In this document: piece by piece, positions 1,403 through 8,270 of the stretch
Position numbering within the stretch: the first letter of the stretch is position 1
Layout: the number at the start of each line of letters is the position of its first letter
From: a virus
Taxonomy: Duplodnaviria > Heunggongvirae > Uroviricota > Caudoviricetes
IMG/VR virus record: IMGVR_UViG_2531839532_000007
Direction: 5' to 3' (one strand)
DNA: 8,294 nt
Notes under the pieces: model-generated
Databases searched by the model: none
Seen by the model: only the letters and a program-made list of their open reading frames with translations
What the model was told of the DNA's origin: nothing
Program-made: the position numbers and the translations under genes

Positions 1403-1606
1403 CATTTTCACTTTTTTAAATCCAACGACAGACGGCTGGCATTTAAGTATTGTGAAATATTATCAAATGTAATCATCATTGATTTACAAAAGATACATTT
1501 TGCCCCGAAAGGATTCATGTCAGAAACATCAAAAGATGATGTTCTATACTGGGAACCATGACAACACGGGCATCTAAAGTGAATATGGTTTGTAATATTG
1601 TCTACC

Positions 1607-1819
1607 TCAAAGCGCCACTACATGAACAGCGGCAGGACCTTTAGGTCCGTTCTCAATACCAAATTCAACTTCCTGATTCTCAGTTAATGTTTTGAAATCG
1701 TTGCTCTGAATTGCTGAGAAATGGACAAACACATCTTTGCTGCCATCTTTCGGCGTGATGAAACCAAAACCTTTTTCAGGGTTAAACCATTTCACTAAAC
1801 CAGTCATTTTGTTAGACAT
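1607..1819 (-). CDS. cspI: Cold-shock protein CspI (CspA family, 70 aa)
   Basis: [70 protein letters not shown] carries the RNP1/RNP2 motifs (KGFGFI, VFVHF). The leader ends in AAAGGTAATAATT-ATG, like the cspA leader. Confidence 0.95.
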
Positions 1820-1999
1820 AATTATTACCTTTTGAAGAAATTAGCCCTTGGGCAGAATGGTCCGAAAAAAAATATCAGAGAGAAAAACCAACAAGGAAAT
1901 CTCAAGAGGTACAAATAATAAAATTATAACAATGACTGCTTCAGATAAATTTGTAACAAACCAGAACACCATTAACGCATGATTAACCACCCATAGCAA
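1820..1999 (-). promoter_or_regulatory. cspI promoter (-35 TTGCTA at 1999..1994, -10 GTTAAT at 1976..1971) and ~145-nt 5' UTR
   Basis: cspA-type architecture with a 17-bp spacer and an AT-rich upstream region. The 11-mer ATGCGTTAATG spanning the -10 is identical to that of the cspB promoter in this window. Predicted leader length is about 145 nt. Confidence 0.45.
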
Positions 2000-2181: not shown

Positions 2182-3205
<1,024 letters not shown>

Positions 3206-3209
<4 letters not shown>

Positions 3210-3517
3210 AGATATTTATGATGAGGACGCTCGTGCTTATTGGCAGGATTTTCAATCTTAAAGGAGTACTGATGCTGCAGATAAGACTCAACTTTTTCTG
3301 ACAATTTTTCTGCTACTTCCAGGAAGACTTGCCGGACGCTCCTTCTGGCTGCTGCCTCATAAAACTCCAGCGCAGCTCCTTCAACACGGTCCATGGCGAC
3401 ATCCAGGTCAAAAATTTCACCGTCAAAGCGTTCTTTGTCCTGTAAGGCTACAGTTACCGTAACTTTATTCTCAAAATTACGGACTCCTTTCACAACCAGT
3501 TCATAGTCTTGAGTCAT
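3206..3517 (-). CDS. ydfR: DUF1327-family prophage protein (YdfR-like), 103 aa
   Basis: Intact ORF between holin and endolysin with a GAGGAGAG Shine-Dalgarno upstream of ATG 3517. Identity is by synteny and a recalled family match. Confidence 0.75.
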
Positions 3518-3521
3518 TGGA

Positions 3522-3737
3522 TTACTCTCCTCTCGCAGCCTTACGCCTGTCTTCTTTAATCTTGAAATAAAGATTTGTCAGATACGTCAGCAGGCCAAAA
3601 ACCAGGCTACCCAGCACACCGATTGCAGCCCACTGTGACGGAGTTACTTTATCGAGTAACTGCAATGCCCAGAAACCAGCATTACCCGCCGATGTGCCAT
3701 AGGCAACACCTGTTGTTAACTTATCCATTGATTTCAT
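3522..3737 (-). CDS. essQ: Class II holin / pinholin (phage 21 S-like), 71 aa with dual-start motif
   Basis: [71 protein letters not shown] has two transmembrane segments and a charged C-terminus. Met1 and Met4 give the holin/antiholin dual start. The ORF-track extension to 3812 starts at a GTG with no Shine-Dalgarno. Confidence 0.85.
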
Positions 3738-3956
3738 ATCCTCACCCCGATGTACACGGATGGTGCAATATGTTTGAAAAGATCGGAGTCTACGGGGTAG
3801 TTTTGACAGCACACGTTGTTCTCAACGGCGCTAAAAAAACATACACATTAAAAATGTGGGTAATTATTTTGAAAGAAAGTCATATATAAAATAATAATAC
3901 GAGAAATGTTTTCATATTTAGTGTACTGTATACGGCCATTTATACAGGAAAAGCCT

Positions 3957-4127
3957 ATGTCAGAACGTAAAAACTCAAAATCACGCCGTAATTATCTCGT
4001 TAAATGTTCCTGCCCAAACTGCACCCAAGAGTCAGAACACAGTTTTTCAAGAGTACAAAAAGGTGCCCTTTTGATCTGCCCTCATTGCAACAAAGTATTC
4101 CAGACAAATCTTAAAGCTGTAGCCTGA
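3957..4127 (+). CDS. Small zinc-ribbon protein (56 aa, CxxC…CxxC), antisense to the late operon
   Basis: MSERKNSKSRRNYLVKCSCPNCTQESEHSFSRVQKGALLICPHCNKVFQTNLKAVA with an AGGAAA Shine-Dalgarno 6 nt before ATG 3957. The ORF-track start at 3906 has a poorer Shine-Dalgarno. It may correspond to a small Qin protein annotated in recent K-12 releases, but I cannot name it with confidence. Confidence 0.5.
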   Translation: MSERKNSKSRRNYLVKCSCPNCTQESEHSFSRVQKGALLICPHCNKVFQTNLKAVA

Positions 4128-4180
4128 TTGATTTTATTAGTAACAAGTATTTTTTATATTTTAATAATATATTTAAAGCA

Positions 4181-4208
4181 GATAATAAAAAACCCGCCTG
4201 AGCGGGTT
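4181..4208 (-). terminator. Intrinsic terminator (strong on minus strand, weak on plus) between cspB and the zinc-ribbon ORF
   Basis: Perfect 7-bp stem AACCCGC-CTGA-GCGGGTT; the minus-strand reading is followed by UUUUAUUAUC. It lies about 280 nt downstream of the cspB stop. Confidence 0.55.
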
Positions 4209-4490
4209 TGAGATTGTGGTGCTTTTTGTGGGAGTCATCCACTTACGCACTTTGTTTTGCCATGCCAGCAGTTAGCTTCTGCTGTAAAACTATTCATGCA
4301 GCAAACCTGCACTTCACCACAATGGTTAGCATACTTTTCCTGATTAAGATTTTGCCAAATATGCTAGCCATTGTTTCATGTATTGGACCTCCTTACTTTT
4401 TATTAAAGAGATCCAATATTCACTACTCTGTCCGTATCTCTACTCAGGCATCAGCCTTCTTCGTTATCGTATACAGACGAGCGATGAATT

Positions 4491-4706
4491 TTAATCAGTA
4501 ATGATGACATTTGCTGCTGCAGGACCTTTAGCACCACTCTCTATAGAGAAGGTAACCTTTTGACCTTCAAATAAGGTTCGATAATTATCATTCTGAATCG
4601 CAGAAAAATGCACAAACACATCTTTACTACCATCAACAGGAGAAATAAAGCCGAAACCTTTATCAGCGTTAAACCATTTTACTAAACCAGTCATTTTATT
4701 TGACAT
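4491..4706 (-). CDS. cspB: Cold-shock protein CspB (CspA family, 71 aa)
   Basis: [71 protein letters not shown] with RNP motifs; AAGGAA Shine-Dalgarno upstream; divergent from cspF as in K-12. Confidence 0.95.
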
Positions 4707-4849
4707 TCTACATTCCTTAACTTGAGCCTTTCGGCATAAATGGTTTGCATAACAGAAACGACTTCGTACTTAATTGGAGAGACTCAAAGAAGGAATAAGT
4801 GAATAACACCTGAAATGAGAACTGCTTTAGTAAACTACTTCGTATATCG

Positions 4850-4902
4850 TCTGTTCTTCAAACCGACGCAATCATTAACGCATAGTTGAACATATGAAGC
4901 AA
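4850..4902 (-). promoter_or_regulatory. cspB promoter (-35 TTGCTT at 4902..4897, -10 GTTAAT at 4879..4874) with a cold-box-like element (TGAAGAACAGA, 4860..4850)
   Basis: 17-bp spacer and AT-rich UP-like region. The element just after the predicted start site matches the cspA cold box TGACGTACAGA at 9 of 11 positions. Predicted 5' UTR is about 160 nt. Confidence 0.45.
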
Positions 4903-5006
4903 TGTTTATTTTAGACATCCAGCCATCTTCAACCCCATCAAAAAACTATAGCTTTCTTCAGGAACGTGTGTATAGTGCGCCAAGTTATCAGTATTAAGGA
5001 ATTTTT

Positions 5007-5219
5007 TTGTCCCGTAAAATGACAGGAATTGTCAAAACCTTTGACGGCAAAAGCGGCAAGGGTCTTATCACCCCATCCGATGGTCGTATCGATGTCCAGC
5101 TTCATGTTTCAGCGCTCAATCTCCGCGATGCAGAAGAAATTACCACCGGATTACGCGTGGAATTTTGCCGGATAAATGGTCTGCGTGGCCCTTCAGCTGC
5201 CAATGTTTACCTTTCATGA
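5007..5219 (+). CDS. cspF: Cold-shock-protein paralogue CspF (70 aa)
   Basis: [70 protein letters not shown]. The 70-aa form starts at a TTG (5007) with AAGGA 8 nt upstream; the first ATG is at 5019. The RNP motifs are degenerate, as expected for CspF/CspH. Confidence 0.88.
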
Positions 5220-5273
5220 GCTATATTAAAGCTTTAATTTCAGGCCCCATCGGATCACACATGGAGAGTTTTT

Positions 5274-5363
5274 ATGAATAACCCCGTCTGTCTTGATGAC
5301 TGGTTGATTGGCTTTAAAAGCTTATGCTGTACTTTGGCCGTAATAGCTCTGCTAATAATATAA
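5274..5363 (+). CDS. Candidate small hydrophobic protein (29 aa) downstream of cspF
   Basis: GGAGAG Shine-Dalgarno 7 nt before ATG 5274; product [29 protein letters not shown] has a hydrophobic C-terminal half. It lies between cspF and the plus-strand terminator at 5512..5548. Sequence-only prediction. Confidence 0.3.
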
Positions 5364-5511
5364 TAAGCAGACTCATTGTGTTTAGGGACATTGTACTGGA
5401 AGAAAACATTTTAAACATCAGGCAAATAACCAAGTCACCAGCTAAATAATAAGTTAACAGACATGAGTCCCGGGATGAGATTCAACATTACCATTGCCCC
5501 ATTTAAAGCAC

Positions 5512-5548
5512 AAAACCCGCTCATCAGCGGGTTTTCTACTTTTTCTTA
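5512..5548. terminator. Bidirectional intrinsic terminator: cspF terminator on the plus strand and tR'-like terminator of the late leader on the minus strand
   Basis: Stem AAAACCCGCT-CATC-AGCGGGTTTT (perfect 8-10 bp). On the plus strand it is followed by UUCUACUUUUUCUU; on the minus strand by UUUUGUGCUUU. Confidence 0.6.
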
Positions 5549-5565
5549 ACGTCGGGTATACAAAG

Positions 5566-5609
5566 CCCATCGTTGAAAAAATTTTATCCATATTTTTTGA
5601 AAAATGCAA
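5566..5609 (-). promoter_or_regulatory. pR'-like late promoter with sigma70-dependent pause element (target of the Q antiterminator)
   Basis: Minus-strand reading TTGCAT-17 bp-TAAAAT-TTTTTC-AACGATGGG, beginning 32 nt after the Q stop. It parallels lambda pR' (TTGACT-17-TAAATT-TGACTC-AACGATGGG), including the -10-like AACGAT pause motif, as recalled. Confidence 0.6.
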
Positions 5610-5640
5610 ACATCATGTCGCCATCTTCAGCAAAAATCAT

Positions 5641-6393
5641 TTATCTCGTCACCTTCCTCAATTGCGCTTCCGCGTATGCTTCTTCCTGCCAGCACTTTGT
5701 TACCAGTTTACCAATGACGTCCGCATACCCCTTATACCACTGATAATCGGTCAGGTCTGGTACCAGCTTCTGGACATGACGTCGTGCCAGCGTGGTCGGT
5801 AAACGACTAAACCGGTTTCCATTACAACGCCCACAAATCTTATATACCGGTACGCCATGAAACCGGGTTCTTTTTTCATCCAGAACAATCCCTTTACCCT
5901 TACACCCTCTGCACGCTGTGCTGGCTTCGCCCTTACCATGGCAATGCTGACATAGTTCCTTCACCCATTCTTCCTTGATTACAGATTCCCCGCGTCTGTA
6001 GTGTTTCACCACTTCGCGCAATACATTATAAAATCCCGTACCTGAACAATGCTCACAGCGAGCCTTACTTGCCGCAGACCTGGAGTAATCAGCAAAGGCA
6101 AAACTCACGAGGTAAGGAATAATCTGTAACCGGATTTCTTCACTCAATTTGTTCAATGTCGGGTTATCCAGTGCCATCGCGTAATTTAGCAGGCCTTCAA
6201 TCGCAAACTGAGGGTCCTGAACACCAACTTTTGCCAGAAATAAGGCCAACCCAAGTGGTGCTTTCGACTGCACCATCCCCTGCGCTGCCATTACATCCGT
6301 AATTGTTAAACAACCGGTGCCTGTCGCTGGAGCGTCATCGCTCAATTTTGGAGATTTTGGGGAGTAATATTTTGGTAAGGCTTCAAGGTTCAT
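5641..6393 (-). CDS. quuQ: Late-gene antiterminator Q (250 aa from ATG 6393)
   Basis: Several CxxC/HCHGKG zinc-binding motifs (CEHCSGTG, CQHCHGKG, CRGCKGKG, CGRCNG) and a position directly upstream of a pR'-like promoter. GGAG lies 7 nt before ATG 6393; the ORF-track start at 6423 is a TTG. Length matches K-12 QuuQ as recalled. Confidence 0.88.
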   Translation of the reverse strand: MNLEALPKYYSPKSPKLSDDAPATGTGCLTITDVMAAQGMVQSKAPLGLALFLAKVGVQDPQFAIEGLLNYAMALDNPTLNKLSEEIRLQIIPYLVSFAFADYSRSAASKARCEHCSGTGFYNVLREVVKHYRRGESVIKEEWVKELCQHCHGKGEASTACRGCKGKGIVLDEKRTRFHGVPVYKICGRCNGNRFSRLPTTLARRHVQKLVPDLTDYQWYKGYADVIGKLVTKCWQEEAYAEAQLRKVTR

Positions 6394-6406
6394 GCTCGTT
6401 CTCCAC

Positions 6407-7456
6407 TTACGCCAGTACGCCAATTGCCAGCGCGCGATCGATAAAACGAAATATCAGCTCCAGTTGGGAGCCATACTTATCTTCAAATGCCACTGTATCC
6501 GTATGCAGCTCGTTGTGATGCTTTCTGCACAAAGGCAACACAAAGAGATCATGTGCTTTTGTTCCCATTCCGCCCTGCCCGTGACCAATCAGATGATGCG
6601 GATCGTCGGCTGGCATACCGCAGCAAGCACACGGCTGTGTCTTAACCCAACGTGTGTATTTCTCCTTAACCCAGCGGCGACGTTTAGGCAGCTTCATGAA
6701 AGATTCCGGAGACTCTGGATCAACGGTGATGCTTACCACCGTCTTTTCCTGTGGTGATTTTTGTTGCTGGTGGGCGTAAGGCAACGGTGCAAGATTTTTT
6801 GTGCGTTGTTTCAATATGCTGGTGGCGGTCTGCTCTCCCGGTACGATGTCGCTTTCGCGGTACACCGAGCAGATTTTTTCCGCTGGTAATCCCAGCGAAC
6901 GACGCGATACAGCCTCAGGTAGTGCATCCACCACCTGATTGCAGACCGCCCACCAGGATAATTCAGCCAAAGATAATTCCCGCTCCTGCGTACCGCTTAT
7001 TGCGTGACGGATGACGTCAATCACCCATGCTGTCAGATTTTGTTGAGCAAGCAGCTCCAGTGATTCCGATGTCTGGTCACGCAGTTGGTTGTCGCAGTGC
7101 CAGCACAACACCATTGCGCCGGTACCATAACGGTGAATGACTGTTTCAGTGTGATGGTAATCGCCATTAGGCCACTGGCAGGATGTAACATGACGTAATA
7201 GCCAGTCGGACAATGCGCCAACGCCGCCAGCAGCACGAATCACCCGTTCGTTACTAAAAAACGGCAGCAATGTTTTGTCTTCCGCCAGCGGCTGGCGAAC
7301 GGCAGGAACGACTCCGGATGGCAGATTACGCATGCTTTTTGGTTCCGGTTCCACCAGCACTCGAGGATTATGAAATATCTGTATGGATTCACGGCCCGGC
7401 TTAAGGACCACCAGCCCAAGCTCAGGCACCAGAACAGGTCTAAGTAATACCCGCAC
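6407..7456 (-). CDS. ydfU: DUF968-family protein with C-terminal HNH/His-Me-finger-like motif (YdfU-like), 349 aa from GTG 7456
   Basis: C-terminal motif …QPCACCGMPADDPHHLIGHGQGGMGTKAHDLFVLPLCRKHHNELH… Strong GGAGG Shine-Dalgarno 4-5 nt before GTG 7456; the ORF-track start at 7495 is also a GTG but lacks a Shine-Dalgarno. Stop lies 13 nt before the Q start. Confidence 0.8.
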   Translation of the reverse strand: MRVLLRPVLVPELGLVVLKPGRESIQIFHNPRVLVEPEPKSMRNLPSGVVPAVRQPLAEDKTLLPFFSNERVIRAAGGVGALSDWLLRHVTSCQWPNGDYHHTETVIHRYGTGAMVLCWHCDNQLRDQTSESLELLAQQNLTAWVIDVIRHAISGTQERELSLAELSWWAVCNQVVDALPEAVSRRSLGLPAEKICSVYRESDIVPGEQTATSILKQRTKNLAPLPYAHQQQKSPQEKTVVSITVDPESPESFMKLPKRRRWVKEKYTRWVKTQPCACCGMPADDPHHLIGHGQGGMGTKAHDLFVLPLCRKHHNELHTDTVAFEDKYGSQLELIFRFIDRALAIGVLA

Positions 7457-8170: not shown

Positions 8171-8202
8171 AAAATAAAAACAAAAACCCGCCGAAGCGGG
8201 TT
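8171..8202 (-). terminator. Intrinsic terminator of the upstream (hok-containing) transcription unit
   Basis: Stem AACCCGC-CGAA-GCGGGTT; the minus-strand reading is followed by UUUUUGUUUUUAUUUU. It sits about 70 nt after the hok-like stop codon. Confidence 0.6.
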
Positions 8203-8270
8203 AAGTGCGGGTGCGTTGAGGATGCCTGCCACATCAGAGGTGGCGAGGGATTTCTCCCCCGCCGGGTCTC

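Follow-up and report, generated by a model that had tools for sequence, protein, structure and literature searches.

Late-gene control by Q antiterminators is best described in the lambdoid phages. Phages 82 and 21 share the logic of lambda: a Q gene, a late promoter (pR') with a Q-binding element (QBE), a sigma-70-dependent pause, and a terminator (tR'). The QBE of lambdoid late promoters lies between the -35 and -10 elements (PMC4914094, PMC9388147). In lambda, a -10-like pause element extends up to +6, GGG occupies +7 to +9, and the pause is at +16/+17 (Bird et al. 2016, PMC5001585). Sigma region 4 is repositioned onto the segment that precedes the pause element (PMC9388147). The Q proteins belong to distinct families: PF03589 for lambda Q, PF06530 for Q21, and PF06323 for Q82 (Yin et al. 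2022, PMC9388147). The 8294-bp stretch of viral DNA analyzed here, IMG/VR record IMGVR_UViG_2531839532_000007 (hereafter the window, to which positions refer unless stated otherwise), contains a comparable set of elements on its minus strand, directly downstream of the Q gene ydfT/quuQ. It is highly probable that this stretch after Q is the Q-lambda-type late-gene regulatory cassette of Qin, a cryptic prophage of Escherichia coli.

The full window is 100% identical to E. coli chromosomes, and positions 2952-6752 align to 1639800-1643600 of E. coli K-12 MG1655 (NC_000913.3) without a mismatch in 3801 bp. The window is the Qin prophage. Because the sequence is identical to MG1655, experimental data from K-12 are directly applicable to it. 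Given this identity, window positions are converted to NC_000913.3 by adding 1636848. Data reported on NC_000913.2 were shifted by a further 1976 bp; this offset was checked at both ends of MgrR (start site 1620938 and 3' end 1620841, versus 1622817-1622914 in RefSeq). Nothing is annotated between ynfS and ydfT in MG1655 RefSeq. A literature search on quuQ/ydfT and on the late promoter and antitermination of Qin found no description of a Qin late promoter, nor any in vitro transcription or Q-induction results on Q-dependent read-through.

Promoter, sigma-70 pause and terminated RNA

The Q gene ends with a TAA codon at 5643-5641 (-). It is followed on the same strand by a -35 element, TTGCAT (5609-5604), a 17-bp spacer, TTTTCAAAAAATATGGA (5603-5587), which is the candidate QBE, and a -10 element, TAAAAT (5586-5581). 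Six nucleotides, TTTTTC (5580-5575), separate the -10 element from the start site, as in lambda. The sigma-dependent pause element AACGAT (+1 to +6) and the GGG discriminator (+7 to +9) together form AACGATGGG (5574-5566). The original prediction had described TTGCAT-17 bp-TAAAAT-TTTTTC-AACGATGGG and then a perfect hairpin after the Q stop; this reading is confirmed base for base, and the hairpin has 10 bp.

The likeness to the lambda pR'/pause/tR' arrangement, which was also predicted, holds. Lambda pR' reads TTGACT-TATTGAATAAAATTGGG-TAAATT-TGACTC-AACGAT-GGG, and Qin reads TTGCAT-TTTTCAAAAAATATGGA-TAAAAT-TTTTTC-AACGAT-GGG. The spacing is the same throughout, with a 17-bp spacer and 6 nt from the -10 element to +1, and AACGATGGG is identical in sequence and register. 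The spacers are identical at only 11 of 17 positions, an approximate comparison of the QBEs. When the 44 nt of lambda pR' from -35 to +9 were slid ungapped along both strands of the window, the best match was exactly 5609-5566 (-). It scores 32/44, about 7 standard deviations (sd) above the background mean of 11.5 (sd 2.95), and the next-best position scores 25. The -35 to -1 part by itself matches at 23/35, versus 22 at the next-best position. Only one copy of AACGATGGG is present in the window (0.06 expected), and the composite TTG-N20-TA-N3-T-N6-AACGAT is likewise found once (0.07 expected).

A generic promoter scan gave the Qin promoter 9/12. It found 10 promoter-like sites in the window, versus 6.9 +/- 3.0 expected, which is no enrichment. 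Consensus scanning by itself does not single out the Qin promoter and would not have supported its identification.

The start of transcription is known from cells. Differential RNA sequencing (dRNA-seq) by Thomason et al. 2015, as tabulated in the Supplementary Data of Sun et al. 2021 (PMC7876045), places a start site at 1640446 (-) of NC_000913.2. This corresponds to 1642422 in NC_000913.3 and to 5574 (-) in the window, which is the first A of AACGAT and the exact counterpart of +1 in lambda. A minus-strand start near 5574 had been named beforehand as one of the observations on which the prediction depended.

The same study mapped sigma-70-dependent pauses in greAB-deleted cells by sigma-70-affinity RNET-seq. 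Two pause sites, at 1640430 (score 5783) and 1640429 (score 6881) of NC_000913.2, are 16 and 17 nt from this start site (Sun et al. 2021, PMC7876045). They correspond to RNA 3' ends at U17 and A18 (5558 and 5557, minus strand). The stronger site ranks 12th overall in the RNET-seq sheet and 4th in the "G1d" class, which the authors consider mechanistically like lambda pR' (Sun et al. 2021, PMC7876045). With the MgrR calibration, the paused RNAs of Qin are 17/18 nt long, one nucleotide longer than the 16/17 nt of lambda. In strength, the Qin pause belongs to the top sigma-70-dependent pauses of the genome. In the same table, the second-strongest cluster of sigma-70 pauses is outside the window, in or near the DLP12 prophage, with a start site at 576452 (+) of NC_000913.2, scores up to 10709, and pauses 12-15 nt from the start site. 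It may be a further prophage late promoter.

The tR' hairpin is at 5535-5512 (-). Its perfect 10-bp stem is AAAACCCGCU/GAUG/AGCGGGUUUU, and it is followed by GUGCUUU to 5505. The U-tract UUUUGUGCUUU (UUUU G U G C UUU; 5505..5515, minus strand) is thus interrupted. A generic terminator scan called this terminator on the plus strand only, because the minus-strand U-tract is interrupted after four U. The leader fold has a free energy of -30.4 kcal/mol (z = -7.1 against shuffled sequences) over 75 nt, with the hairpin and the U-tract contributing, and -26.2 kcal/mol (z = -5.6) for the 67-nt RNA described below.

A dominant curated Term-seq 3' end, classed as "orphan", is listed at 1642356 (-) of NC_000913.3 (Adams et al. 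2021, PMC7815308, Supplementary file 1). It corresponds to 5508, the C of GUGC past the hairpin. Its scores are 103591 in LB at an optical density (OD) of 0.4, 55368 in LB at OD 2.0, and 123305 in M63, and it is among about 1000 dominant 3' ends in all three conditions. Combined with the start site, it defines a 67-nt pR'-tR' RNA (5508..5574, minus strand), the counterpart of lambda 6S RNA. The predicted minus-strand transcript of about 60-70 nt is thereby accounted for. The data show an active sigma-70 promoter starting at 5574, a sigma-70 pause at 17-18 nt, and a terminated RNA of 67 nt. They also show that the hairpin and U-tract are where most transcripts from 5574 stop when K-12 grows under ordinary conditions.

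These data bear on a simpler view of the locus, in which the hairpin is a mere terminator of Q (ydfT), of the convergent cspF-ynfS transcript, or of both, and the promoter-like sequence is an inactive fossil. The position of the hairpin, 106 nt past the Q stop and facing cspF-ynfS, fits this view, as do the plus-strand call of the terminator scan and the failure of consensus matching to distinguish the promoter. A fossil promoter is, however, contradicted by the mapped start site and the very strong pausing 16-17 nt downstream of it. No plus-strand 3' end is listed at the hairpin in the Term-seq table of Adams et al. 2021, and the segment from -35 to +9 is far better conserved than the Q-proximal flank. 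The hairpin may also end the Q mRNA, and the promoter stands regardless. This view is therefore very improbable. The hairpin itself could serve as a terminator in either direction; its plus-strand tail, CTACTTTTTC, faces cspF-ynfS.

Through the Qin data, the map of E. coli K-12 gains a promoter, a pause site, a terminator and a 67-nt RNA, all unannotated and backed by experiment. They explain an "orphan" 3' end and a top-ranking sigma-70 pause, both listed without comment in genome-wide tables, as parts of one prophage late-gene switch. Neither Sun et al. 2021 nor Adams et al. 2021, when searched, mentions prophage, Qin, ydfT, or cspF for this site. The switch is ordinary in kind, of the textbook lambda type, and does not alter the textbook picture; it was unannotated and yet visible in three public data sets.

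Another interpretation is that the locus is a domesticated stand-alone small RNA (sRNA) gene whose constitutive 67-nt product has a function of its own, with Q control vestigial in K-12. A known system of this kind is StxS of Shiga-toxin phages, which is likewise a short constitutive RNA from an antitermination-controlled prophage late promoter and is ended at tR'. StxS differs in that it is processed from a 258-nt transcript and that its Hfq binding and targets have been demonstrated (PMC7547250). The PR'-tR' transcripts of Stx phages and lambda act as sRNAs or bind Hfq like them (PMC7547250; bioRxiv 10.1101/2024.10.31.621285). For lambda 6S RNA, an sRNA role is suspected. In Qin, the 3' end of the RNA is dominant in three conditions, and polymerase occupancy of the promoter is strong. 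The RNA has an A-rich, ARN-like linker, UUAAGAAAAAGUAGAAAA, and a terminal hairpin with a U tail, and the prophage is cryptic. Against this interpretation, Q is intact, and phage 2H10 carries the same sequence, whose role there must be the control of late genes. On this balance the sRNA-gene interpretation is unlikely, and it is compatible with a late-gene cassette rather than exclusive of it. A scan of the window against Rfam at E <= 1 found no family that covers the leader; the only matches were cspA thermoregulators elsewhere and a weak one to isrK.

The Q protein and conservation of the cassette

The gene ydfT/quuQ (5641..6393, minus strand; annotated as ydfT in RefSeq) encodes a 250-aa antiterminator of the Q-lambda family. 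QuuQ matches PF03589 (E 4.2e-54) and DnaJ_CXXCXGXG, and no other Q family is matched. It also matches the structure of lambda Q (PDB 7ubm; E 4.6e-36), so the upstream gene was correctly predicted to be Q. QuuQ shares 41% identity with lambda Q, 94% with the Q of SfV, and 93% with that of phage 2H10, which is full length; the Q of Ayreon falls within 93-94%. QuuQ itself is full length and looks intact.

Compared with lambda Q, QuuQ has 47 additional residues, inserted directly before the position of the lambda zinc ribbon and including two extra CxxCxGxG motifs. These motifs explain the match to the DnaJ zinc finger. The insertion covers residues ~113-159 (5917-6057, minus strand) and is also observed in the Q proteins of SfV, Ayreon, and 2H10. 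It gives a DnaJ-like zinc module of four motifs in the arm which, in lambda, touches both the QBE and sigma region 4.

Since QuuQ belongs to PF03589 and Q82 to PF06323, lambda is the right comparator for Qin and phage 82 is not. Phage 82 had also been proposed for comparison, and this proposal has to be dropped. Neither PF06323 nor PF06530 of phage 21 (PMC9388147) is matched by QuuQ. The pause element of phage 82 is located 9 bp further downstream, and its pause is at +25 (PMC5001585), versus 16-17 nt from the start site in Qin.

Lambda and Qin thus share the Q family, the promoter geometry, the promoter-proximal sigma-70 pause, an intrinsic terminator ahead of the lysis genes, and a constitutive short RNA. 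They differ in the length of the leader, which is ~193 nt in lambda with termination at +193 (PMC4914094), versus 67 nt in Qin. They also differ in the two extra CxxC pairs of QuuQ and in what follows the terminator: about 600 bp precede the holin in lambda, versus a 1.8-kb insert of cold-shock genes, partly on the opposite strand, in Qin.

By homology to lambda, the cassette would work as follows. Sigma-70 would rebind the -10-like element, causing the pause. QuuQ, encoded directly upstream, would bind the promoter spacer as its QBE and load onto the paused complex. Q would then render the polymerase resistant to tR', to later terminators in the cspB region, and to collisions with opposing transcription. 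The modified polymerase would read 1.8 kb through the cspF/cspB/ynfU insert into essQ-ydfR-rrrQ-rzpQ.

Several observations weigh against this interpretation of the locus. The Q-dependent step is its least secure part; both the read-through of tR' and the binding of QuuQ to the spacer in K-12 are expected from homology. The 47-aa insertion extends the zinc arm, which in lambda touches DNA, and details of loading may therefore differ. The -35-like TTGACT located 1 bp upstream of the lambda pause element reads TTTTTT in Qin; the sequence around the pause element is TAAAT-TTGACT-C-AACGAT in lambda versus TAAAA-TTTTTT-C-AACGAT in Qin. In work by Nickels and Hochschild, TTGACT beside the pause element reportedly seats sigma region 4 during Q loading. 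This element is accessory and not universal in Q-lambda-type cassettes. Qin lacks head and tail genes, so that its "late operon" consists of the lysis cassette only; the morphogenesis genes are missing because Qin is cryptic.

The terminator supplies the remaining objections. The U-run in K-12 contains only 4 U, whereas phage 2H10 has 5 and most relatives have 5-7. A minus-strand Term-seq 3' end is found at 5340 (1642188 in NC_000913.3), only in LB at OD 2.0. Together, the short U-run and this 3' end suggest that tR' of K-12 is somewhat leaky without Q. The 3' end at 5340 is antisense to ynfS and 168 nt past tR', at an AT-rich hairpin, and may reflect Q-independent read-through of tR'.

The cassette is conserved beyond Qin. 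The 3' end of Q, the promoter, the pause element, and the terminator show 80-100% DNA identity in 35 phage records, including SfV, mEp460, Ayreon, Stx2c-converting phages, 2H10, and Tritos. The named phages are complete and Qin is a remnant. SfV and Ayreon have an annotated terminator at the corresponding position. The U-runs of these phages have 5-7 T, and in most of them the sequence past tR' differs from that of Qin. AACGATGGG is present in 76 of the 80 viral contigs whose Q is 94-100% identical to QuuQ. These contigs are near-identical up to the terminator and unrelated past it; the module therefore ends at tR'.

The first scan of viral contigs with QuuQ yielded only these 94-100% relatives, and the diversity of the data set came from a genome scan and from DNA-pattern scans. 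Conservation was then measured as mean pairwise identity among 17 lineages of the Qin-type Q clade, from several genera, whose Q proteins are 63-100% identical. The segment from +1 to +9 is the most conserved (0.97), followed by the -35 element (0.85), the -10 element (0.81), and the spacer (0.78). The flanks are less conserved, at 0.60 between the Q stop and the -35 element and 0.40 from +28 to +45.

The pause element is observed in nearly all leaders of the Q-lambda family examined. The spacer is conserved within the Qin-type Q clade and is clade-specific across Q subfamilies. Three types are distinguished: TTGCA-N3-TTC-AAAAA-N3-TGG in Qin, TTGAATAA-N-ATTGGG in lambda, and a third type, TTTACTTTTCCCGAA. 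A clade-specific spacer beside a family-wide pause element is what one would predict if Q specificity were set by the spacer acting as the QBE. Lacking the -35-like element and carrying an extended zinc arm, the Qin cassette is a natural Q-lambda-type variant with which to ask which lambda features Q loading requires.

An intrinsic terminator starting at +24 to +136 is observed in 32 of 35 lineages of the Q-lambda family, and its stems are different or compensated. The routine used for this count is simple and missed the bulged-stem terminator of lambda itself.

The comparison of relatives also bears on an open reading frame (ORF) of 51 codons at 5454-5609 (-), which could be read as encoding a small protein. 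The frame is listed as open, and one phage record, PhiR42_1 (essentially Qin), annotates a hypothetical protein there. The ORF, however, starts at the TTG of the -35 element and runs across promoter, pause element, and terminator, and in relatives the frame is broken by stops at varied positions (codon 6, 25, 30, and others). A coding function is the least probable of all the interpretations considered. It was rejected as the frame is not conserved, and the ORF is probably a gene-caller artefact.

One IMG/VR contig, L308, is a mosaic. A Qin-type promoter (TTGCAT...TAAGAT) is joined to a lambda leader (AACGATGGGTTAATTCGCTCGTTGTGG), and the junction is inside AACGATGGG. This position within the shared sequence points to the pause element as a site of recombination. 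A lambda-type Q (621-bp match, 207 aa, uniform identity to the query) is found on short contigs (L112-L130, L133, L134, L137, L142, and others) whose assemblies are labeled Oceanobacillus, Kitasatospora, Segatella, Bradyrhizobium, Shewanella, and others. These are most likely contamination with lambda DNA.

A predicted 5'-terminal stem in late leaders

The predicted fold of the Qin leader contains a stem at its very 5' end. AACG (+1 to +4; 5574-5571) is predicted to pair with CGUU (+24 to +27; 5551-5548), and UGGG (+6 to +9) with CCCG (+19 to +22; 5556-5553). The 3' arm thus occupies 5548..5556 (-), and it is supported by the predicted fold, by conservation in the clade, and by covariation across the Q-lambda family. 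In lambda, +1-5 pairs with +19-23 (positions 788-810 of L002). The identity of the CGTT arm in the Qin clade is 0.92, on par with the promoter hexamers.

The pairing is widespread. AACG(A) at +1 is complementary to a (T)CGTT in 34/34 of the leaders first examined, where the 3' arm ends at +20 to +29. Over all leaders, which include further loci such as L101, L132, L175, and L304, the (U)CGUU arm ends at +20 to +33. A 4-bp Watson-Crick stem anchored at +1 is present in 13 of 15 non-redundant leaders; with the anchor moved to -6 to -2 or to +3 to +9, the number falls to 0-2 of 15. In shuffled sequences, the +1-anchored stem occurs in 0.78 of 15 on average and in 5 at maximum.

Promoter-anchored scans that disregarded the pause element were used to search for variants. 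They yielded four independent stem variants that are doubly compensated: AACAA/TTGTT, AATGA/TCATT, AAGAATG/CATTCTT, and AAAG/CTTT. Several other variants are retained through G-U wobble. Two points count against the stem: the pair is broken in about 5 lineages, and the stem is thermodynamically weak taken alone. Pairing in RNA is favored over a palindrome in DNA, because loop lengths from 11 to ~21 nt and wobble pairs are tolerated. No description of such a 5'-terminal stem was found in the literature searched, to which access was limited.

Two linked possibilities are raised here. The 5' end of Q-lambda-type late transcripts may be a selected terminal stem, and the 67-nt RNA of Qin may be a constitutive small RNA of K-12 with a host function. 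This pair of proposals is tentative, with the chances leaning somewhat against it. The conserved 5' stem and the possible sRNA role are the only parts of the analysis that could lead to something new.

The path to the lysis genes and neighboring features

The lysis genes lie on the same strand downstream of the promoter, between 3737 and 2182 (-). The first of them is essQ, a holin gene (3522..3737; Pfam Phage_holin_2_1 and RefSeq). It is followed by ydfR (3206-3517; Pfam DUF1327 and RefSeq), rrrQ, a lysozyme gene (2676-3209; Pfam Phage_lysozyme and RefSeq), and rzpQ, an Rz-like gene (2182-2679; RefSeq). The distance from +1 (5574) to the start codon of essQ (3737) is 1837 nt. Of the read-through path in the original prediction, the length of about 1.8 kb to the holin stands, and the single opposing gene has to be replaced by three, ynfS, cspF, and ynfU.

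The insert between tR' and the holin, a "moron", covers 3957..5363 and has genes on both strands: ynfS (5274-5363, plus), cspF (5007-5219, plus), cspB (4491-4706, minus), and ynfU (3957-4127, plus). The genes cspB, cspF, and ynfU occupy the insertion slot that is held by stx genes in Shiga-toxin phages. In phage 2H10, Q is followed by a promoter and pause element identical to those of Qin, then by tR', cspF (opposite strand), cspB, and the holin. Because this lambdoid phage has the same layout, the order Q-tR'-csp-holin is not a degenerate oddity of Qin.

A minus-strand scan of the insert found one good terminator-like hairpin, at 4209-4190, 3' of cspB. The minus-strand Term-seq 3' ends within the insert are at 5340, 4786, and 4376/4378, the last of which is very strong. 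The only 3' end at the canonical-looking hairpin of 4190-4209 is on the plus strand, at ~4212, downstream of ynfU. The dominant 3' end downstream of cspB, at 4376-4378 (-), reaches 2.46 million in M63. It is 113 nt past the stop codon, where a 9-bp hairpin lacks a U-tract, and may mark a processed fragment of the 3' untranslated region (UTR) of cspB.

Across the window, the Qin annotation comprises gnsB, ynfN, cspI, rzpQ, rrrQ, ydfR, essQ, ynfU, cspB, cspF, ynfS, ydfT (quuQ), ydfU, rem, and hokD. At 1-608, the 3' end of an IS3-family transposase gene (29-295) adjoins a DUF1398 (ydfO-like) gene, which is annotated as insertion-split. The cspA thermoregulator (Rfam RF01766) matches cspB with its 5' UTR at 4475-4867 (-) with 158.8 bits, and cspI with its 5' UTR at 1580-1965 (-) with 112.8 bits. 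The isrK match is at 8181-8262 (-), near hokD, and is below the threshold (25.1 bits, E 0.034). IsrK is an sRNA of the Gifsy-1 prophage, transcribed from an antitermination-controlled promoter.

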